A stretch of 56,302 nt of DNA from a virus: UHGV virus genome UHGV-0090450, one strand, 5' to 3'. Made by a program: the position numbers and the translations under genes. The notes below the pieces were generated by a model that saw only the letters and a program-made list of their open reading frames with translations, searched no databases and was not told the origin of the DNA. Positions 8,688 to 41,584 of this stretch are shown here, piece after piece (within the stretch, counting starts at the first letter, position 1; every line of letters starts with the position of its first letter).

Positions 8688-9728
8688 GTGAACATTCAAG
8701 CAGTAGACATTTTTTGTGGCGCAGGGGGCTTAACTTTTGGGCTAAAAAAAGCCGGGATTGAAGTTTCTCATGGCATTGATATTGATGAGTCCTGCCGTTT
8801 CGCTATTGAGAGCAATAATCCCTTAACGAAGTTCATTAACCAGTCAGTTACTGAACTGCAATCCAGCGATGTGTCTGCTATGTTCAAGGAAGGAAATATT
8901 AGATTACTTGCAGGCTGTGCCCCTTGCCAACCGTTTTCCAAGTATCGTAATCCAAATAGCAGAAAAGATGATACAAAGTGGCGTCTTTTATCTGAGTTTC
9001 AGAGGATTGTAAGTGATGTCATGCCAGAGCTTGTGACTATGGAAAATGTTCCTCAACTTAGAAATCATAAGGTTTTTGAAGAGTTTGTTAGTGTATTAAA
9101 GACTCTTGGGTATCATCTGTGGTACGACGTTGTAAAATGTTCCGAGTATGGCTTGCCTCAAAATAGACGTAGATTAATTCTAATTGGGTCCATATTGGGG
9201 CCAATCAGCCTTGATCAAAAAAAAGTAAGCCGTAAAGTTACAGTAAAGGATGCTATTGGTCAGTTGCCAAAAATAGGTGCAGGGGAGAAACTCGAAAGTG
9301 ATCCATTGCATCGTTCGCCTAAATTAAGGGATATTAACCTTAAACGAATCTTGCACTCTTTACCAGGTGGTACGTGGGATGATTGGCCTGAAGAAATTAG
9401 AGCGGATTGCCATAAAAAGCATTCAGGTGCTACCTATAAAAGTGTTTATGGACGGATGGTTTGGGACGATACTAGTCCTACAATAACTACCCAATGTTAT
9501 GGATATGGTAATGGGCGATTCGGACATCCTGAGCAAAATAGAGCAATAACTTTGCGTGAAGCTGCTATTTTACAATCTTTTCCTATGGATTATAAATTTA
9601 TTGGAAAAAATACGCCTTTTTCATTCCAAAAGTTAGGAACGATGATTGGTAATGCTGTTCCCCCTATAATTGGCCAAGTAATAGGGAGAACATTTGTTAG
9701 GCATGTTGAGGGGATAAATATCCGTTAG
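8688..9728 (+). CDS. DNA (cytosine-5) methyltransferase
   Basis: Motif I FCGAGG, motif IV GCAPCQPFS, ENV, QNRRR, C-terminal GNAV; GTG start; AT-rich relative to phage backbone. Confidence 0.9.
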   Translation: MNIQAVDIFCGAGGLTFGLKKAGIEVSHGIDIDESCRFAIESNNPLTKFINQSVTELQSSDVSAMFKEGNIRLLAGCAPCQPFSKYRNPNSRKDDTKWRLLSEFQRIVSDVMPELVTMENVPQLRNHKVFEEFVSVLKTLGYHLWYDVVKCSEYGLPQNRRRLILIGSILGPISLDQKKVSRKVTVKDAIGQLPKIGAGEKLESDPLHRSPKLRDINLKRILHSLPGGTWDDWPEEIRADCHKKHSGATYKSVYGRMVWDDTSPTITTQCYGYGNGRFGHPEQNRAITLREAAILQSFPMDYKFIGKNTPFSFQKLGTMIGNAVPPIIGQVIGRTFVRHVEGINIR

Positions 9729-10386
9729 AGATAATATAATCTTCAGTTGAGTTTATTAATAAACGAAGATATAGATCAACTCTCTCTGCTCTAGACTTAA
9801 CTTCTTCTAAGGGGTCAATTTGCCCCTTTTTAGAGAAGCTAGTACTTCCATGCGCGAGTTCGTTTCTGATATCCTTAAGCAAGTCTAAGTCAATACCATT
9901 TCTACATTCAGGTGAGTTTGCGATAGTTATTCCGTAAGCCTGCGTTATTTTGTGTAATACAGGCTTGCAAACATTACCATTGAATTCTTTACGAATATTC
10001 AATGAGGCTGAAATTATTCTTTTGGAAATGTCAGTGCCTATCTTTTTATAAAGGGATTGCCCTGTTTCATTATCTGAAACAATTCTATGTAATATATTTA
10101 CTTGAAGCTTCTCCCTGAGTGATGCGTAATTCACATCATTATCTTGTAAATGATCATAAATTGACTCGATGCAACCTCTGGCAGTATTTTCAACTTGATT
10201 ATATAGCATCATATGAACGGATGATTTTAAAATATTTACCCTTAGGATATTAGATTCTATTTCATCTTGATGCGCTTGCGGATCTAACTGCTGAGTATGA
10301 ATCTCTATAGATGATGCAAGAGAAAGCAGTTCCATAATGTCTCTTGCTCTTTCTTCATATTCATCTCGTAAATCAATTAGACTCAT
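9697..10386 (-). CDS. HEPN-motif protein (R-x4-H: RNELAHG), putative nuclease partner of DUF262 protein
   Basis: Rx4-6H motif near C-terminus; start 2 nt after DUF262 stop; 3' end overlaps the methyltransferase 3' end by 32 bp. Confidence 0.55.
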   Translation of the reverse strand: MSLIDLRDEYEERARDIMELLSLASSIEIHTQQLDPQAHQDEIESNILRVNILKSSVHMMLYNQVENTARGCIESIYDHLQDNDVNYASLREKLQVNILHRIVSDNETGQSLYKKIGTDISKRIISASLNIRKEFNGNVCKPVLHKITQAYGITIANSPECRNGIDLDLLKDIRNELAHGSTSFSKKGQIDPLEEVKSRAERVDLYLRLLINSTEDYIISNGYLSPQHA

Positions 10387-10388
10387 TT

Positions 10389-11549
10389 TTAAATCCCTAA
10401 CAACTTATTTTTAACGTAAAATATTCTGTTTTTTAGCTGGCTGGTATTGTTTGCACTATCAGCAGTAACAAGTGTTTCAAATTCCTCTTCAAATAGCCAT
10501 TCACCTACAGGTACGGCTGGACTCTGGAGTTGTGGGTTAGTTTTTAATGCAAGTGCAGTTCCCACGGCAATGGCTTCGTATCTGGCTCGTGGGGTGGTTT
10601 TACTTGTTGCGGTCTTTTTAAAGCCAATAGGGAAATGGGCAGCAACAAAAGCAAGCATCATTTCAAAATCATGTTTAAAATTATCAACATCTTGTTGAGT
10701 AGTCACAGCTGCTGCTTGTTCATTTAAATAATTATCAATAAAGGGACGGACAAATCCCTTATAGTTTTCTAAATCATTTAAATATGCAAAAAATCTCAAA
10801 ACTAACTCACGATGATCGCCATTCGACCGTTTCCGGTCTGATAATGGAGCTAGTTGGGAAAAAAGTGAGTTTGTTGAGCATGGGGTCACAACATCTTTAT
10901 AGAACATTGAGGTAGCAGCATCTGAGCCATGCCTCACTTCCATCGCTTCTAATCTTTTAACACCTGAGTTGATCCTTTCAAATAAATCTCTTCTATGTTG
11001 TTCCTCAACATCACCTTTCAACTCAATAAATCTTAGTGAAGCTCTTAAAAATCTTCTTTGGCGGCTAGCTAAAAGATCTGAAAATTTGAAACCTTCTAAA
11101 CTTTTAAGCTCTTTCAAATCCTTTAACTCAAATTGATCGTTCCAAAAATAATAAATAGAGCGTATCCGTTGTGAACCATCAATGATTTCTACCCTACCAT
11201 CTAATTCAGGGTCTTCATTAAATACATCAGCAATGTAAAGGTAAGGTATTGGAAAGTCTAATAGAATACTTTCTATAAAGCGAGAGGCTGTTTTTGTATC
11301 CCACTTGTAATCACGTTGATAATCTGGAATAAAAAGCTCGTTTTTGTCATTTTCAATATTATCACCATACTTTTGAATAATGACTTCAACGGTCCACTCA
11401 CGTACATTGTATCCAATGTTTCTCTGAGCGAGTCTGATTTCATTGTCAGCGGAAGCGGTTAAAGCTGCAATTTCAGCCTTTTTTCTGTTCTTAGCGTGTT
11501 CATCTTGTATCTGAGCAAGCTCTTCTTTGAGTTCTTTGAGTGTAGTCAT
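10389..11549 (-). CDS. DUF262 (ParB-like/GmrS-like) domain protein
   Basis: IPDYQRDYKW and DGSQR motifs diagnostic of DUF262; no DUF1524/HNH domain in the same polypeptide. Confidence 0.8.
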   Translation of the reverse strand: MTTLKELKEELAQIQDEHAKNRKKAEIAALTASADNEIRLAQRNIGYNVREWTVEVIIQKYGDNIENDKNELFIPDYQRDYKWDTKTASRFIESILLDFPIPYLYIADVFNEDPELDGRVEIIDGSQRIRSIYYFWNDQFELKDLKELKSLEGFKFSDLLASRQRRFLRASLRFIELKGDVEEQHRRDLFERINSGVKRLEAMEVRHGSDAATSMFYKDVVTPCSTNSLFSQLAPLSDRKRSNGDHRELVLRFFAYLNDLENYKGFVRPFIDNYLNEQAAAVTTQQDVDNFKHDFEMMLAFVAAHFPIGFKKTATSKTTPRARYEAIAVGTALALKTNPQLQSPAVPVGEWLFEEEFETLVTADSANNTSQLKNRIFYVKNKLLGI

Positions 11550-31402: not shown

Positions 31403-32329
31403 ATGCATCGTATAGACACGAAAACCGCGCAGAAGGATAAGTTCGGCGCGGGTAAGAACGGTTTTACCCGTGGTAACCCCCAGACCGGCACACCTGCCAC
31501 CGATCTGGATGATGACTACTTTGACATGTTGCAGGAGGAACTTTGCAGTGTTGTGGAGGCATCCGGTGCCAGTCTGGAGAAGGGGCGGCACGATCAGTTG
31601 CTTACCGCACTTCGCGCGCTGCTGTTAAGCCGCAAGAATCCGTTTGGCGATATCAAATCGGACGGCACGGTGAAAACGGCTCTCGAAAACCTTGGTTTGG
31701 GAGATACAAGCGGATACGTGGGACGCTGGGTGAATACCCGGGTTTTCACGTCATCAGGTACGTACACCCCGACGCCAGGAACAAAACGGATCAGGGTCAC
31801 AATAACGGGCGGCGGTGGCGGAGGGGGCGGCTGCAAGGCTATATCCAATAATGAAACGTTTTTCGGTGCTGGCGGTGGGGCCGGTGGAACAATAATTTCA
31901 ATAATGACCCCGACACAGAATAGTTATCCAGTCACTATCGGCGCAGGTGGGGCCGGTGGTGTTAGTGCGACGTACGGCATCAATGGCGGTAATAGCTTAT
32001 TCGCATCGTTAATTGCTCCTGGTGGCGCAGGCGGCGGAAAGTCAGGAGTCACAAACACAAACGGTGGTAACGGAGGTGTGCCGAGTACTGGCGGTATCAA
32101 CATCATTGGTGGAAATGGAGGCGACGGTCAGTCCGGAAATATCGGCGTCAGCGGTGAAGGCGGAACATCGTACTGGGGGGGCGGTGGACGCGCAGGCGCT
32201 GGCGGTGGTGTTAGTGGTAAGGCATATGGTTCAGGTGGCGGTGGCGCATACGATGCCGGCTATAGCGGAACCAGTATGACAGGCGGGAAAGGTGCTGCTG
32301 GGATTTGTATTATCGAGGAGTTTGCATAA
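31403..32329 (+). CDS. tail fibre protein with Gly-rich C-terminal domain
   Basis: Conserved fibre N-terminus, long GGxGG repeats. Confidence 0.8.
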
Positions 32330-32745
32330 TGAATGCGTCATATGCAGTTATTGAAAATGGGATGGTTGTGAATGTCATTGTCTGGGATGGCGAGGCTGAA
32401 TTCACAGTGCCGGATAATCAGCAGCTCATTGATATTTCTGATATCAGTGAGCATCCCGGAATCGGCTGGGGGTATTCAGACGGGGTATTTACTGCGCCGC
32501 TCCCTCCGGAACGTTCTCATGATGAACTGGTAGCTGACGCTGAACAGAAAAAACAGTCGCTGATAGACGCAGCAATGGCCAATATCAGCGTGATTCAGTT
32601 AAAGCTGCAGGCCGGGCGCAAACTGACGCAAGAAGAAACTACCAGACTTAACGTTGTGCTGGATTATATCGAGGCTGTGACGGCAACAGATACCAGCATT
32701 GCACCGGATATTGAGTGGCCGGATGAACCGTGCTTCGCTGAATAA
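32329..32745 (+). CDS. tail fibre assembly protein
   Basis: Start overlaps fibre stop (TAATG); track ORF begins at 32305. Confidence 0.7.
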   Translation: MNASYAVIENGMVVNVIVWDGEAEFTVPDNQQLIDISDISEHPGIGWGYSDGVFTAPLPPERSHDELVADAEQKKQSLIDAAMANISVIQLKLQAGRKLTQEETTRLNVVLDYIEAVTATDTSIAPDIEWPDEPCFAE

Positions 32746-32809
32746 AATCTGTTGAGGAGAAGCGGTTTAATTGTAACTCAATTCTTTTTGTGTAATAAAA
32801 GTAGGATAA

Positions 32810-32858
32810 AACTGTGACACATAAAGCCTCGCAATGGTTTGCAAGGCTTTGAACGCTT
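32810..32858. repeat. about 50-bp hairpin-containing repeat, copy 1
   Basis: ACAAAACTG(T/A)GACACATAA(A/G)GCCTCGCAATGG(T/C)TTGCAAGGCTTT; second copy at 40043-40090, direct orientation, about 90 percent identical. Confidence 0.65.
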
Positions 32859-33005
32859 CTATATTGAGGATGTGACGCGGTTTCGTTTATTTCCATTCTA
32901 TATATTGATGTCGATTTTTATGAATATAGAGCATACGGATAAACTGCAGTGTGATTAGAGTCAAAGTAATAGTTGTTGACTCTAATCATTGCAAAGTGAC
33001 TTTAC

Positions 33006-34073
33006 TTAATGAAATTTATCTCGGATGAATTGTTGCGATGGCTTTTCAATGAATATATATGACATATAGCTAATTGCCATTAATGTAAGCATGAATAAAA
33101 TGAATACCTTGGGGCTGTAAAAAAGATCGCGTCCATAGCCAATCTTGTCAGCTAAATAAACAACAATGATTTGCAAAGGAAAATGTAAAAGATAAGATGA
33201 ATAACTGATATCACCCAACCATTCAATTTTCTTCCCAAAATCGTTTCGTATTGCGCTAATTGATACAAGGAAAAAGATTATGGAGGTAAATCCGAATAAG
33301 ATAATTGAGAATATATCTGCTACTTGCAGGGTAAAGATAACTCCCCATGAGATCAATAGAAAAACACAAGCAAAAATAAAAAATAATTTTGCGCTAATAT
33401 TTTTTATGACCGCAATCGTAATTTTATAGGTCAGACCACCAATAAAGAAAGAGAATGCGCCGATCATTATGGGATTGTTAATTTTGAAAAAGTAGTACGA
33501 CAATGCAACTATTAAAATTGATATGAATGTTGTTTTTGATGTGAACTTGCATAATATAAAAAATATCATGTACATAAGTACTTCAATCGACACGGACCAT
33601 GTCGGGGCGTTGAAGGACCAACCTCGCTCAAATCCCCATGATTGAATCATCAATAAATTCAGAATGGCATGGTAAATGTCATTCATAGGATAAACAAAAA
33701 AATAATTATGACTTTTAAAGAAAATAATTTGTAATATTGCCACGACAGCAAATGTAAATATATAAAGTGGATATAATCTACTGACACGGTTAACTATAAA
33801 AGTTTTTGCTGAGGTTTTATTGCTGTGTATATTGTCAGCGTATAGATAAAAAAATATGAATCCAGAAATCATAAAAAACAATTCGACAGCATATAAACCG
33901 TAATGATAAAAAACGGAAAAAAATTCATAAAAAGGTTGGCGGTTTATGATTATGTCAGATGCAGCATTCTTTTTCATAAAAAAATGTTGCCAATGCCATA
34001 ACACAACGGAAAGTGCGGCAAATCCTCTCAGAACATCCAGGGTATATATTCTCTTCCCAAAAAAATTCGTCAC
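33006..34073 (-). CDS. acyltransferase family 3 integral membrane protein (O-antigen acetyltransferase-like)
   Basis: About 10 predicted TM helices; N-terminus LDVLRGFAALSVVLWHWQHFF; very AT-rich. Confidence 0.85.
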   Translation of the reverse strand: MTNFFGKRIYTLDVLRGFAALSVVLWHWQHFFMKKNAASDIIINRQPFYEFFSVFYHYGLYAVELFFMISGFIFFYLYADNIHSNKTSAKTFIVNRVSRLYPLYIFTFAVVAILQIIFFKSHNYFFVYPMNDIYHAILNLLMIQSWGFERGWSFNAPTWSVSIEVLMYMIFFILCKFTSKTTFISILIVALSYYFFKINNPIMIGAFSFFIGGLTYKITIAVIKNISAKLFFIFACVFLLISWGVIFTLQVADIFSIILFGFTSIIFFLVSISAIRNDFGKKIEWLGDISYSSYLLHFPLQIIVVYLADKIGYGRDLFYSPKVFILFMLTLMAISYMSYIFIEKPSQQFIRDKFH

Positions 34074-34623
34074 AACGAACCTCTTTTAATAAAGTCAAGT
34101 GATAATGAAAGATAAATATTGTAAACGAAAAAACACTGGACTGGAACATATATCTCTGCTTGTAATTTACCCAAGATAATTTTACTAACGCAGTCATAAT
34201 TCGTTCATGTATACCAGATGAAAGTACATGTTCTATGAAATAGGGTTTTGCCTGGAGTTTGAAGGTTTTTAACGATTATACCTGTTTAATCGACTCCCCA
34301 TGTTTTTTGACATTATCCACCGCACACGATACTGGATGCCAGGTAAACTGATTTGCTGGCATAAAGTCACTGAGAATTTTTTACCAACAATATCTTGCCA
34401 CATCTTTTCCCGCACAGTTTCGGCAATAGAATCAGCGGGCAGCGGTCATCAATATTCACCAGACATTGATCTGCCGCACTATCTGACCGGTGTCCTGCTG
34501 AGAATACTAATTTCTTTTTTTGCAAGTGCTGTCCAATCATGATTGGGGGGGGCCGGCGGAGTTGAAACCGCAGGTACGTTGTATGCAATAACGTGCTGCG
34601 GTTTAATCTTATCAATTGAATAC

Positions 34624-35493
<870 letters not shown>

Positions 35494-36032: not shown

Positions 36033-38597
36033 TTATTTCATAAGAGTGCGCCTTGTTTTGATCTGATCACGCCATTCTTTTAACGTGCTTATATCCGCTC
36101 GCAGCTCCTTATACTCTGGTATAGAAGCTGGCATTTCCGTCGACTGGCTGTGCTCATAACAGCTGTATTTAGTCATGAGGCTTTCAATCAATTTACAGTC
36201 TTCTGCAGTTATATCCTGTACATACGGAAGCCTTCCGTCAGTCTGGATTCCTCTTCTATGACGTATAACTACCCCGTTAAATAAATCCTCCTCGACAGAG
36301 CGCTCAATGAGTTTACGAAAATCACTGCAAACGCCCTGAGCTAGCCCACGGAAAGCTATTGCGCCATGTTCTTGTCCAGATTTGTAGGCTGAATCCAGCC
36401 TAGTCAGGAGAATGTTATTCGCTGATTTGGTATTCGCGTTCCAGACCTCCTGATCGGCAGGATGACCGGCAGCTCCATCAAATGATTCAATACATATCGA
36501 TTTATGGTGCTGCTTTTTCCATGGGTCTCCCTCTTTTCTTGCCAAATCTTCAATTACCCCGTAAAGGGAAAGTCTGTGCGTTAAAATAATCACCTGACGC
36601 GATTTAGCGAGTTCAACGAGGCGTTTAGCAACTTGCCACTCAAATTCGTGGTCCAGAGATGAAATAGGGTCATCAAAAATGAAGGGAGCAGATCCCGGCC
36701 GATCAGTGACATCGGCTAAAAATGCAGCCAGTGAGATAATCCTACGTTCTCCTTCACTCAGAACATTGTGCAACTTGTCCCGTTGCGCTCCTTTTAGCTG
36801 TAGCTGATGCAAAACTTTCGCATTTTCTGTCCTTATTTTCACAAGCTCAACCTGCAAGCCAGGAGCACCAAGAACTTTCAGCTCACGGTTGAATCTGGCG
36901 GCATAGGCTTCAGTGACAACTTTCTGAGTAATATCAGCAGATTTAGTTGATAATGCACGGGAAGCGGCAAGTGATATCCATTCATCAAATTCACTTCTTT
37001 TTTTTAAGCGTTCAACTTCGGCTCTGATAGCCTCGGCTTGACCAGATAACCACCGTCGAGCTTCGGCTTCGTTTTTATTCTGCAAAGCTTTGGCCCTGTC
37101 AAATCCTGCTGCATCTCTCTGAAACTGGTCGGCTTCTCCCTGAAGCCGGTCGCGGTAAGTACGTAAATTCGTGATAGCTTCGGTCAAATCAGCCAAAGGA
37201 ACTGCTGTCTGGGTAGCTTCATGCTCGGTGAGCGCCTGACGACTGAGGGATGCGGAACTCCATATTCCCGTTAGGTATTTATTCCATTCTTCCTGAATCG
37301 CAGCGCTTGCACAAAGGGTAGCAATTTCGGCCATTGAGGGAGGAATAGTTATCGAGCCGATTGCCTGAGCATACAGACACTCAGCTGTGGCAGCATCGCT
37401 CTCAAGACGTGATTGCACGAAAGCCTCAAGATTGTTCAGACGCTGCTGAGCTTCTGCGGATAGAGCCTGATTGCATAAAACACAACAGGCCTCATCTGTT
37501 GCCGGAAAAGCCTTGTCTGGATAGGGCGTCCTTGAATAGTCGCGAGCAGCTTCCCACATGGCACGCCATACAGGTGAGCCAATGCCCTCCAGTGAGTCAT
37601 CTTTTATTCGTTCACTATCAAGCGCAATTCTGCGCTTGCTGATGCTATCAGCACGTAACGCCCGAAGACAGTCGATATTTGACTGGCTAAAAGTCTTTGC
37701 CGTCTGCTCAAGTTGAGTGATGATCTGATTAACAGATGTTTGAACCGCAAGCTTGTTGCGGGCGTTCTCAGCCGGATCTTTAACGTTCAGACGTTCATTC
37801 AAGGCACTAAGCGCTTGCTCATCCGCCTCAGACCAGTTTGTCATCACTGCGATATTTTCGGTAGTTGCTGTACTTAGTGCACTATAGGTAGTGGCAATAT
37901 GACAACGCTGATAAACAGCAGGTAGTTCGGGAAGTTTGCTGACTAGCTGAGACTGTTCATCCCTTAGCTTATCGCGTACCAGTTTCAGGTACTGGGCCAG
38001 TTTTTCAAAAAGCCCCACCACACTCGGTATATAGGTAGCGGCACTCTCTTGGGTGAGATAATGCAGAGATTCATCCGTATCGAAGATATCAATGCCTTTC
38101 AGGGCATCGATCGGAGGGCTGTCAGCTGACCAGTCCGCTTCAGCATTGCTTTCATTCGCTTTCCATTTAATGTGGCAACTTCGCTCAGGTGGTAAGGGAT
38201 TAAAGACATTAGAGTTAAGCTGAGCTGCTCTAGGTTTTCCGGACATACGTTTGAGCACACGCGTATAGCTGGATTTACCGGACCCGTTATGGCCGTAAAT
38301 AACAGTCAGATTCCCTGAACCGAAATCGAGCGGTAAACGTGGAGCAAGGTTCTCAATACCCTTTACAGCTTCGATCCGACTTAACCTGAGTGTTCCAGAT
38401 CCCTGCTCTGCAGATGCTAGGCCTAGGAAAGTATGGTGTGTCGTTTTTGTTCGTCCATGGGGGGTCTTGAGTAAAGCAATAACCTGCTGAAGGTCATTAT
38501 CTGTCAGGTCATCCTGTTGAATGAGTCTTTCCGCTAGTTCCTGAAACCAGTCCTGCTGCTTTAACAGCCAGGCTATGATATCGGCCTTTACATCCAT
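36033..38597 (-). CDS. RloC-like ABC/SMC-type ATPase with coiled-coil insertion and CxxC zinc hook (AAA_13-like)
   Basis: Walker A VIYGHNGSGKSS, signature LSEGERRIISLAAFLA, Walker B FIFDDPISSLD, H-loop ILTHR, CVLC within the roughly 500-aa insertion; RBS AGGAGGG. Confidence 0.7.
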   Translation of the reverse strand: MDVKADIIAWLLKQQDWFQELAERLIQQDDLTDNDLQQVIALLKTPHGRTKTTHHTFLGLASAEQGSGTLRLSRIEAVKGIENLAPRLPLDFGSGNLTVIYGHNGSGKSSYTRVLKRMSGKPRAAQLNSNVFNPLPPERSCHIKWKANESNAEADWSADSPPIDALKGIDIFDTDESLHYLTQESAATYIPSVVGLFEKLAQYLKLVRDKLRDEQSQLVSKLPELPAVYQRCHIATTYSALSTATTENIAVMTNWSEADEQALSALNERLNVKDPAENARNKLAVQTSVNQIITQLEQTAKTFSQSNIDCLRALRADSISKRRIALDSERIKDDSLEGIGSPVWRAMWEAARDYSRTPYPDKAFPATDEACCVLCNQALSAEAQQRLNNLEAFVQSRLESDAATAECLYAQAIGSITIPPSMAEIATLCASAAIQEEWNKYLTGIWSSASLSRQALTEHEATQTAVPLADLTEAITNLRTYRDRLQGEADQFQRDAAGFDRAKALQNKNEAEARRWLSGQAEAIRAEVERLKKRSEFDEWISLAASRALSTKSADITQKVVTEAYAARFNRELKVLGAPGLQVELVKIRTENAKVLHQLQLKGAQRDKLHNVLSEGERRIISLAAFLADVTDRPGSAPFIFDDPISSLDHEFEWQVAKRLVELAKSRQVIILTHRLSLYGVIEDLARKEGDPWKKQHHKSICIESFDGAAGHPADQEVWNANTKSANNILLTRLDSAYKSGQEHGAIAFRGLAQGVCSDFRKLIERSVEEDLFNGVVIRHRRGIQTDGRLPYVQDITAEDCKLIESLMTKYSCYEHSQSTEMPASIPEYKELRADISTLKEWRDQIKTRRTLMK

Positions 38598-39657: not shown

Positions 39658-40042
39658 AAAACCCTCTGCTATATGTAGAAAGAAAACTCCAACCGCACTA
39701 TTAAATTGCAAACCATCTTAAGCAATCATATCTTTTGATGCAAAAGGAAAATTTACCTTTTGCAAAAAGGTTTTTCTTATACCATGAAGTCAGCCCTAGT
39801 ATGGTAACGCACTCACTTGGGCCCTATTGATTAAGACAGCGATAGGTAAGTCATATTTTTATAAGTTATAAGAGCAACTGCGAACTTCCGCTCTTCGCTC
39901 ATAACAGACATAAACTTCAGTTATGGCATAAAGGTATGCATGCTGGGTGGGGAAAGTATGAAGGAAAAGAAGACTGCTGCGCCGTTTGTCGTCACGTTTA
40001 TCTTCATTGGCTATGCAAGTCGTAATACAAGGTGGGACAAAA

Positions 40043-40090
40043 CTGAGACACATAAGGCCTCGCAATGGCTTGCAAGGCTTTACATGTTTT
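40043..40090. repeat. about 50-bp hairpin-containing repeat, copy 2
   Basis: Matches 32810-32858. Confidence 0.65.
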
Positions 40091-40157
40091 GATGTGGTGG
40101 GACGTGTGAGCGCAGTATTGATGGGGTAATACTTTGAATTAGAAGCGGATTCTTATA

Positions 40158-40203
40158 ATTCGTAATGCGAAGGTCGTAGGTTCGACTCCTATTATCGGCA
40201 CCA
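40158..40203 (+). other. 3' fragment of tRNA-Thr (anticodon loop to CCA), att core
   Basis: ATTCGTAATGCGAAGGTCGTAGGTTCGACTCCTATTATCGGCACCA matches the 3' 46 nt of E. coli tRNA-Thr(CGU) as recalled; no matching 5' acceptor strand upstream. Confidence 0.7.
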
Positions 40204-40369
40204 TTCTAATGTCTCCCCAAGTCTACTCAAGTATTTAAAAACCTCTTATAATCCGCATGTTAGCGCCCCTTTTAGTCTTTTGACGTCTACTTAAGTACTC
40301 CAAAATCTACAGTCAATTGGGGGTACTTTTGGGGGTATTTGCTGTTCGGTTTAGTGGAGGTACCCCCAA
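40204..40369. promoter_or_regulatory. putative integrase arm-type sites between att core and int
   Basis: Direct repeats GTCTACT(C/T)AAGTA(T/C)T and GGGGGTA(C/T)TT. Confidence 0.4.
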
Positions 40370-41584
40370 GTGAAACTCAATGCCCGTCAAATAGACACTG
40401 CCAAGCCAAAAGAGAAGGCTTACAAGCTGGCTGATGGTGGTGGTCTGTATCTCTTGGTAAAACCTAGTGGAGGAAAATATTGGCGCTTCAAGTATCGTGT
40501 AGCTGGTAAAGAGAAGCTGTTAGCACTAGGTGTGTATCCTGAAGTTACCTTGGCTGATGCTCGTGCAAAACGTGAAGAAGCTAAAAGGGGTATCGCTGGG
40601 GGTATCGATCCGATGGAAGCGAAACGAGAGGAAAAGATTGCCCGGGAAACGCAGTTAAACAACACCTTCAAAGATATTGCCCTTGAGTGGCACAGCAGCA
40701 AATTAAAAAAATGGTCTGCTGGTTATGCTTCAGACATCCTCGAAGCCTTCAACAAAGATGTGTTCCCTTACATTGGCAAAAAACCAATCGCCGAAATCAA
40801 ACCACTTGAACTGCTGAATGTGCTGCGGCGCATCGAGGGGCGCGGTGCTACCGAAAAAGCCAAAAAAGTGAGGCAGCGATGTGGGGAAGTTTTCCGCTAT
40901 GCAATTGTCACTGGACGTGCTGAGTATAACCCTGCACCGGATCTCACCAGCGCGATGCAAGGTCATGAATCTAATCATTATCCTTTCCTCACAGCCAAAG
41001 AATTACCTGATTTTTTCAAGGCATTGTCCAGTTACTCAGGAAGTGCATTGGTTGTTATGGCGGCTCGTTTACTGATTATCACCGGTTTGCGGACTGGCGA
41101 ACTGCGCGGTGCATTATGGGATGAAATCGATCTCAACAAGGCTATCTGGGAGATACCTGCTTCACGGATGAAAATGCGTCGCCCTCATGTAGTGCCTTTG
41201 TCTGAGCAGGCTCTTTCGCTTATTGGGCAGATTAAAGAACTAACTGGCAATTATCCGCTTATGTTTCCCGGCCGTAATGATCCAAGGAAAACAATGAGCG
41301 AGGCTAGCATAAACCAAGTATTTAAACGCATCGGCTATAACGGAAAGGTTACTGGTCATGGCTTCCGGCACACTATGAGCACCATTTTGCATGAGCAGGG
41401 CTATAACACCGCGTGGATAGAGACACAGCTTGCGCACGTCGATAAAAACTCAATTCGTGGCACATACAACCATGCGCAATATCTGGATGGGCGGCGGGAA
41501 ATGCTTCAGTGGTACGCTGATTATATGGATTCGCTCGAGCATGGCGGAAATGTGGTGCATGGTGAGTTCGGAAAATGCGGGTGA
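40370..41584 (+). CDS. int: tyrosine integrase (P4 type, N-terminal arm-binding domain)
   Basis: N-terminus KLADGGGLYLLVKPSGGKYWRFKYR, C-terminal catalytic region (HGFRHT, LAH...RGTYNH); GTG start after GGAGG; adjacent to tRNA fragment. Confidence 0.9.
   Translation: MKLNARQIDTAKPKEKAYKLADGGGLYLLVKPSGGKYWRFKYRVAGKEKLLALGVYPEVTLADARAKREEAKRGIAGGIDPMEAKREEKIARETQLNNTFKDIALEWHSSKLKKWSAGYASDILEAFNKDVFPYIGKKPIAEIKPLELLNVLRRIEGRGATEKAKKVRQRCGEVFRYAIVTGRAEYNPAPDLTSAMQGHESNHYPFLTAKELPDFFKALSSYSGSALVVMAARLLIITGLRTGELRGALWDEIDLNKAIWEIPASRMKMRRPHVVPLSEQALSLIGQIKELTGNYPLMFPGRNDPRKTMSEASINQVFKRIGYNGKVTGHGFRHTMSTILHEQGYNTAWIETQLAHVDKNSIRGTYNHAQYLDGRREMLQWYADYMDSLEHGGNVVHGEFGKCG

Follow-up and report, generated by a model that had tools for sequence, protein, structure and literature searches.

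The stretch of DNA analysed here, referred to below as the window, is the 56,302-nt viral genome UHGV-0090450, and our subject is a gene on its minus strand (33006–34073) for a membrane protein of the acyltransferase-3 (AT3) family. The phage is an Escherichia coli prophage whose nearest complete genome is that of strain DS26-1. The AT3 gene carries the motifs and the predicted fold of its family, evolves under purifying selection, lies between the tail-fibre genes and an attachment site of the phage, is co-transferred with the tip of the tail fibre and is associated with E. coli serogroups O8 and O9. We consider it probable that the gene, carried as a moron by a thrW-integrated temperate myovirus, specifies a functional AT3 O-acyltransferase of the standalone type, probably an O-acetyltransferase, with the polymannose O8 antigen as its likeliest acceptor. 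The family, the position, the relatives and the serogroup link fit lysogenic conversion by polysaccharide acylation, which an earlier note on this DNA had proposed. More tentatively, and with a chance that we place below even, the gene may stand for an unrecognised phage-borne O-acetylation of the ABC-transporter-made O8 (less so O9) polymannose, in which the AT3 gene and its cognate fibre tip form one cassette that occurs across unrelated phage backbones.

The coding sequence comprises 355 codons from a GTG start, with a Shine-Dalgarno sequence, AGAGG, at 34080–34084 and the start codon 6 nt downstream of it. It was taken from the list of open reading frames, and PGAP calls the identical 1068-bp coding sequence in strains IAI1 and AH02; the product name that PGAP already assigns is 'acyltransferase family protein'. 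The Pfam profile PF01757 (Acyl_transf_3) matches residues 10–334 with an E-value of 7.5e-25 and 88.1 bits, compared with a curated gathering score of 31 bits, and the match covers profile positions 2–320 of 326. In addition, PHROG 3333 'O-acetyltransferase' matches residues 7–352 (E 8.3e-41). The family membership and the N-terminal acyltransferase-3 pattern reported in the earlier note are thereby corroborated. The R-X10-H motif lies within LDVLR16GFAALSVVLWH27, the FFxISG motif of transmembrane helix (TMH) 2 is present as FFMISG at residues 66–71 (F66-F67-M68-I69-S70-G71), and the RxxR motif of TMH3 is present as R96-V-S-R99. The definitions of these motifs come with mutagenesis that found the residues essential in OafA and Oac (PMC7448272): the R/K-X10-H motif corresponds to R14 and H25 of OafA, its histidine being invariant and essential, and the RxxR site corresponds to R73/R75/R76 of Oac and R69/R72 of OafA at the cytoplasmic end of TMH3 (PMC7448272).

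The AlphaFold2 model of the protein is of high quality (predicted local distance difference test 90.8, predicted template modelling score 0.89) and contains ten long helices, at residues 10–32, 49–77, 89–122, 159–177, 181–194, 200–226, 228–248, 254–275, 290–311 and 321–354, the first of which holds both R16 and H27. The estimate of about ten transmembrane helices made from the letters alone agrees with this model, which shows the ten-helix transmembrane acyltransferase (TmAT) fold. In an alignment of 40 homologs with 38–85% identity to the window protein, R16, H27, F66, F67, S70, G71, R96 and R99 are invariant. G205 and G212 in helix 200–226 (TMH6) are invariant as well, and their match to G202 of OafA is presumed. 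This presumed match aside, the protein has all the hallmarks of the AT3 family that could be checked here. At the level of sequence, no chain in the PDB matches it, and the AT3 protein itself has no match in PADLOC. Zero NCBIfam models match it, so that an equivalog name is not transferable to it.

The gene is very AT-rich, as had been noticed: its GC content is 31.8%, compared with 48.0% for the whole window and 55–58% for the tail genes adjoining upstream. The Nei-Gojobori ratio of nonsynonymous to synonymous substitutions (dN/dS) is 0.197 against the IAI1 allele, 0.146 against the AH02 allele and 0.181 against the Citrobacter ortholog, which indicates that the gene is maintained by selection. 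This range, together with the 355-codon frame and the invariant catalytic motifs, bears out that the gene is intact. We searched 5426 complete E. coli genomes and found matches to the AT3 gene in 49 of them (0.9%); the 48 genomes in which the match extends over at least 80% of the gene length are regarded below as full carriers. Their copies are 97.0–99.9% identical to the window, come from many hosts and countries and lie in at least three integration contexts. In 44 of the 48 chromosomal copies the gene is full length with the same 355-codon frame, and the widely used reference strain IAI1 has an intact copy (locus ECIAI1_RS13195). In the remaining four, a frameshift or IS1 has broken or altered the gene, which counts against an active gene, as does a scan for consensus sigma-70 promoters that revealed no site upstream of the AT3 start.

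These two observations, the low GC content and the rarity of the gene among the genomes are what would be expected of a silent or decaying passenger, that is, an AT-rich acquired cassette that is unexpressed (for instance through H-NS silencing) or lacks an acceptor in most hosts and confers no phenotype. We regard such a passenger as very improbable, because dN/dS stays at 0.15–0.20 across alleles and genera, most copies keep the full frame, the catalytic motifs do not vary among the 40 homologs and the region upstream of the gene is conserved together with it. This upstream region is a leader (34074–34192, minus strand) of ~125 bp that moves with the AT3 gene, holds the Shine-Dalgarno site and is conserved between E. 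coli and Citrobacter, with a nucleotide homology of 85.7% that ends at 34192. The matches in the sigma-70 and terminator scans were found only inside the AT-rich AT3 gene and at chance frequency (9 found, 11.5 expected). A phase switch of the gtr type, controlled by Dam and OxyR, was considered upstream of the AT3 gene and rejected, since only one GATC (34468) occurs in the 550 bp before the gene. On the other side of the gene, the 3' flank of the mobile cassette (32808–33005, minus strand), delimited by the Citrobacter homology, contains a strong hairpin at 32944–32994, which by RNA folding has a 13-bp inner stem and a folding energy of −20 kcal/mol and separates the AT3 gene from the fibre-assembly gene convergent with it. 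This hairpin lacks a T-run and was not called by the terminator scan; a role as a bidirectional terminator is possible.

Two of the altered copies share one change. A T7 homopolymer at nucleotides 90–96 of the coding sequence (33978–33984, minus strand) is aligned with T6 in DS26-1 (O8) and EH09-18-41 (O9), where the frame shifts after residue 31, which truncates the protein, and PGAP instead calls a 1191-bp coding sequence that runs from an upstream ATG through the shifted frame; the two alleles differ by ~1%. The loss of one T could be on/off slippage or a homopolymer error of long-read sequencing, the latter being an equally good explanation. Since the AT3 gene has five T7 runs, in addition to six 6-nt runs, the coincidence of the two strains is not significant. 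In strain PD7, which has neither the O8 nor the O9 marker, the gene is disrupted by IS1. The episomal copy in strain CT01 lacks one G (window equivalent 33234) compared with related copies, and the chromosomal copy of the same strain has the full match length.

To assign serogroups, the O8 wbdD gene of IAI1 and the O9 wbdD gene of HS were each concatenated to the AT3 gene, and the second match in each record was taken as the serogroup. By this measure 35 of the 48 full carriers are O8, 7 are O9 and 6 are other, compared with base rates in the 5426 genomes of ~302 for O8 (5.6%) and ~211 for O9 (3.9%), together ~9.5%. Among AT3 carriers, O8 has an odds ratio of 51.5 with a Fisher p of 1.8e-34 that is not corrected for phylogeny, as applies to all serogroup counts given here. 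Genomes that share only the flanking GIY-YIG gene with the window are ~8% O8. The fibre tip and its assembly gene, which adjoin the AT3 gene, are more widespread: they were found in 293 genomes, of which 120 are O8, 99 are O9 and 74 are other, including copies on plasmids of ~90 kb. Because O8 and O9 thus make up ~219 of these genomes (75%), the restriction to these serogroups is mainly a property of the fibre tip. This suggests that the fibre recognises polymannan or something tightly linked to it, and that the fibre tip and the assembly gene are a receptor-binding cassette specific to polymannan hosts. Within the same 293 genomes, the AT3 gene is present in 35 of the 120 O8 genomes (29%) and in 7–8% of the others (7 of 99 O9 and 6 of 74 other), giving an odds ratio of 5.1 for O8 versus the rest (p 1.6e-6).

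Several observations weigh against an enzyme directed at the O8 antigen. The fibre-tip genomes without an AT3 gene are themselves 72% O8 or O9, so the association is largely one that the AT3 gene has in common with the fibre tip, and the O8/O9 link of the AT3 gene could reflect the host range of the phage or clonal structure, not the specificity of the enzyme; the counts are uncorrected for phylogeny. The O-antigen cluster type was read in two of the six carriers that are neither O8 nor O9. In 22AR0322 the cluster is of a rhamnose/galactofuranose type with rml and glf, the latter frameshifted, and PC-NDM34 has a wzx/wzy cluster with manB and manC; the proposal that all carriers have mannose O-antigens is ruled out by these two strains. 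Strains of O8 and O9 also carry other surface polysaccharides, as exemplified by a group-1-like cps cluster in HS and by colanic acid genes plus a wzx/wzy cluster at galF-gnd in IAI1. In the literature we found no report of O-acetylated O8 or O9 antigens or of a converting phage for them, and the canonical O8 and O9 structures are not known to be O-acetylated. Finally, the best AT3 homolog that tblastn found in the phage collection has 38% identity and lies on an unannotated gut contig, and the named phage O-acetylases among the matches listed have at most 28% identity to the AT3 protein. Among the sequenced phages of this collection there is no close homolog, and the substrate is therefore not transferable by orthology.

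These points leave room for an active enzyme that acylates another envelope glycan, such as a group 1/4 K-antigen, colanic acid, enterobacterial common antigen, the lipopolysaccharide core or periplasmic glucans, in which case the O8/O9 link would arise only from a coinciding phage host range or capsule type. We judge this alternative unlikely, though less so than the other alternatives. AT3 proteins act on many glycans (review PMC9558356), and the further polysaccharide loci of HS and IAI1 as well as the serogroups of the AT3-less fibre-tip genomes would be in line with such an acceptor. However, the second polysaccharide loci differ between IAI1 and HS, whereas the O8 and O9 antigens are both polymannans, and the enrichment of the AT3 gene in O8 persists among the genomes with the fibre tip. 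NCBIfam, too, contains no family model that matches the protein. In addition, the nearest non-phage relatives are located in wzm/wzt O-antigen clusters and not in capsule, enterobacterial common antigen or glucan loci.

The latter relatives are found in Pseudomonas savastanoi and Xanthomonas albilineans. The P. savastanoi homolog (44%) lies inside a wzm/wzt O-antigen cluster with genes for a WbdD-like methyltransferase and a WbdA-like double GT4 protein, and the X. albilineans homolog (43%) lies inside a cluster of the same type. They are the closest relatives outside the enterobacteria, align over the full length, belong to the same length class and sit among the genes for export by an ABC transporter, the type of pathway that also makes O8 and O9. 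They differ from the AT3 gene of the window in being part of a biosynthetic cluster and not phage-borne, and are themselves uncharacterised; the polymers of these clusters are probably rhamnans, as rml genes are present. Among enterobacterial relatives, the Klebsiella aerogenes homolog (47%) is in a prophage between baseplate/fibre genes and genes for beta-helix (tailspike-like) proteins, the Serratia marcescens homolog (49%) is in a prophage between baseplate/fibre genes and genes for large unannotated proteins, and the Serratia plymuthica homolog (50%) lies beside P2-like prophage remnants. The Kluyvera homolog (59%) lies on the chromosome, and the 8 kb that flank it contain no phage genes. 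Judged by these sequence contexts, the relatives point to O-polysaccharide as the acceptor class. With megablast, 50,697 phage genomes gave no real match to the AT3 gene, only 36 bp to phage Chlobot, and the plasmid collection gave matches only to two episomes, those of AH02 and CT01.

From what is described for AT3 proteins we infer the acyl donor, the acceptor, the expression in lysogens and the exclusion phenotype as follows. The ten-helix protein would reside in the inner membrane, by analogy with Oac, OafA and OafB. A pore model of AT3 proteins has been published (PMC9833829), and according to it cytoplasmic acetyl-CoA would enter the central pore of the protein, where R16 and R96/R99 may hold the phosphates of CoA with H27 beside the thioester. 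On the periplasmic face, the acetyl group would then be passed to a sugar hydroxyl of O-polysaccharide that is still linked to undecaprenyl diphosphate and not yet ligated to lipid A-core. The likeliest acceptor would be the O8 polymannose O-antigen, perhaps also O9, i.e., the product exported by Wzm/Wzt. As an outcome, the O-antigen epitope would be changed and the adsorption of phages that use the unmodified polymer would decrease, so that the lysogen would be protected against such phages, plausibly including those with the co-transferred neighbouring fibre tip. Reduced phage adsorption would also fit the location of the AT3 gene in a block of defence genes.

The proposed chemistry could differ in the acyl group or in the final step: a non-acetyl group (e.g., succinyl, as for OpgC, or a longer one) may be transferred, or a periplasmic partner may be needed to complete the transfer. 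AT3 members use several acyl-CoA donors, the identity to any characterised member is at most 28%, and the review cited above leaves open how standalone AT3 proteins finish the transfer (PMC9558356). According to the same review, however, those AT3 enzymes with characterised action on O-antigens are acetyltransferases (PMC9558356), and neither an SGNH-type protein nor another candidate partner is encoded beside the AT3 gene, whose neighbours are defence genes. We consider such a departure from standalone O-acetylation quite improbable.

A close parallel is Oac of the Shigella phage Sf6, a standalone AT3 protein that 2-O-acetylates rhamnose of the S. flexneri O-antigen. The two proteins are similar in size (333 aa for Oac, 355 aa here), both have ten transmembrane helices, and the R-X10-H, FFxISG and RxxR motifs are aligned (FFSISG and KRARRIFP in Oac). 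A profile comparison with hhalign gave a probability of 81% and an E-value of 1.3e-5 over 157 columns, in the N-terminal half only, and Sf6 is absent among the 40 tblastn matches listed for the AT3 protein. Like the AT3 gene, oac lies on the opposite strand, right after the receptor-binding tail gene and before int/att. The two phages are otherwise distinct: Sf6 is a P22-like podovirus with a tailspike, while the AT3 phage is a myovirus whose baseplate is Mu-like and whose fibre is rich in glycine, and the host O-antigen is a Wzx/Wzy rhamnose-GlcNAc polymer for Sf6 and mostly a Wzm/Wzt polymannan for the AT3 carriers. In E. coli, the AT3 genes of the temperate phages PhiV10 and TL-2011b modify the O157 antigen and block reinfection (PMC9558356); the TL-2011b O-acetyltransferase has 26.5% identity to the AT3 protein over 97% coverage, and the two phages are of another lineage and have other host serogroups.

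The phages SfV, SfII and SfX share with the AT3 prophage the integration site (thrW, beside proA) and the SfV-like order of head and tail genes. The AT3 gene is found, like the conversion cargo of the Shigella thrW phages, in the interval from the tail-fibre genes to the att site. The gtrABC cassettes of SfV, SfII and SfX act by glucosylation via Und-P-glucose, in contrast to acyl transfer from acyl-CoA, and the AT3 prophage has no gtr genes. OafA, OafB and OatA resemble the AT3 protein in the fold of the AT3 domain and in the residues of TMH1 and TMH3 that are essential, but they possess an 11th helix and a periplasmic SGNH domain, whereas the AT3 protein ends within or after TMH10 at residue 355 with the AT3 domain as its only Pfam domain; the fusion-specific loop motif GG-F/Y-xGV-D of OafA, OafB and OatA is not evident in it. 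HGSNAT and GWT1, solved eukaryotic TmAT acyltransferases, have 11–14% identity, extra domains and other acceptors.

The AT3 gene is located in a temperate phage, next to a receptor-binding tail gene and near int/att, as a separate convergent unit, and thus shares the genomic signature of phage conversion acetylases. Orthology to a characterised conversion acetylase of the Oac, OacD or PhiV10 type was not found. As far as sequence comparison can tell, the AT3 protein belongs to a separate, uncharacterised subfamily and is not an ortholog of any characterised conversion acetylase.

The mobility of the gene was deduced from two homology spans. Citrobacter freundii has an 85%-identical AT3 protein, encoded by the last phage gene after the tail-fibre genes of a related prophage, and the nucleotide homology to the window is restricted to 32808–34192, i.e., the gene, its leader and the 3' flank with the hairpin. 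In IAI1, a 2.9-kb module corresponding to 31691–34596 (fibre tip, assembly gene, AT3 gene and upstream region) is 95.5% identical and lies in a different phage backbone near yfhH. Since the two spans differ, the AT3 gene moves both alone and with the fibre tip. The fibre tip and assembly gene (31718–32745) also occur at 87–93% identity in 77 places on E. coli plasmids of ~80–100 kb and in several prophage backbones (records such as NZ_CP083706.1, NZ_CP158331.1 and NZ_CP101260.1).

Acetylation of O-antigens by prophage AT3 genes is a textbook mechanism, and the gene class is not new; what is new here is the specific link to the O8 polymannan and the module of fibre tip and AT3 gene. The O8, O9 and O9a antigens of E. 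coli, identical to Klebsiella O5 and O3, are reference systems for ABC-transporter-dependent O-antigen assembly as well as vaccine and antibody targets, and the O8 and O9 polymannans serve as model systems that are regarded as unmodified. Some 12% of O8 genomes (35 of about 302) carry the AT3 gene. If our proposal is true, these would form a hidden O8 subtype whose susceptibility to phages, antibodies and lectins is altered, two chemotypes would be concealed under one in-silico O8 type, and a periplasmic tailoring step would act on Wzm/Wzt products in E. coli. Innate lectins such as Dectin-2 have mannose O-antigens as ligands (PMC5016159). Because the fibre tip and the AT3 gene would move as a cassette, a receptor-binding protein and a receptor-masking enzyme would be inherited as a unit, and such a module would be a simple model for the co-evolution of receptor use and receptor masking.

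The genes upstream of the AT3 gene form an HK97-type head and Mu-like tail module in SfV-like order that ends in the fibre genes. The last two, on the plus strand, are the tail fibre with a glycine-rich C-terminal (receptor-binding) domain (31403–32329; Pfam Gly_rich_2 and PHROG tail-fibre families), of which the C-terminal part is what moves with the AT3 gene, and the tail fibre assembly protein (32329–32745; Pfam Caudo_TAP, and PGAP in DS26-1), which is convergent with the AT3 gene. A query with the thrW region of DS26-1 (blastn-short) located attR at 40158–40205, where 48 bp of the 3' end of tRNA-Thr (thrW) recur exactly; a tRNA scan of the window detected no complete tRNA, and attR was located only by this query. 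In DS26-1, the same prophage starts at thrW beside proA, with the integrase at that end. Directly beyond attR in the window is the integrase of a second element (40370–41584), recognised by its integrase domains. The earlier note had placed the AT3 gene at the prophage end, which is roughly right, but the gene is not the terminal one, as attR lies ~6 kb beyond it with at least three further genes between. The likeness to serotype-converting phages seen in the same note holds: in this thrW-integrated temperate phage the gene is placed between attR and the module for the tail fibre, as for Sf6 oac.

The AT3 gene is the first of a ~7-kb cargo block that also contains a hypothetical gene and two genes, both on the minus strand, with matches to anti-phage defence families. 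One encodes a GIY-YIG protein (34624–35448) matching the PD-T4-3 defence family (PADLOC E 3.8e-140; Pfam LEM-3_GIY-YIG), and the other an 854-aa AAA_13/SMC-like ATPase with a CxxC pair (36033–38597) matching the candidate defence family PDC-S06 (PADLOC E 0, 1059 bits; Pfam AAA_13 and SMC_N). The whole 7.2-kb block is bracketed by the two copies of a 72-nt direct repeat with a hairpin (find_repeats family D1, 79% identity), on the plus strand at 32798–32869 and, just inside attR, at 40029–40100, the latter also matched against the IAI1 and AH02 loci. Recombination between the copies would delete all cargo, and the repeat may indicate where the late operon ended ancestrally. The cargo beyond the GIY-YIG gene varies, with an AraC-type regulator in DS26-1 and a type II restriction-modification system, dinI and a dusA-type integrase in AH02. 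The contents of the slot between the fibre genes and att differ between strains in this way, which makes the slot a hotspot of variable cargo.

A 43.7-kb circular episome of the whole phage, AT3 gene included, also exists in AH02 and CT01, and the gene is therefore part of a phage genome that is able to excise. The two records, NZ_CP081704.1 (AH02 'plasmid unnamed3', 43,680 bp) and NZ_CP081794.1 (CT01), were deposited as plasmids and represent a sister phage in its excised, circular state; the chromosome holds an integrated copy of it as well. Beside its integrase this circle has a 5' fragment of dusA, which is typical of dusA-integrating elements. Elsewhere in the window, a second cargo cluster of low GC content (8688–11549, 36–41% GC) is located upstream of the lysis genes and has no counterpart in DS26-1; it includes a C5 cytosine methyltransferase on the plus strand and, on the minus strand, a HEPN protein of the MAE_28990 type (9697–10386) and a GmrSD_N/DUF262 protein (10389–11549) that matches NsnA and PD-T4-2_A.

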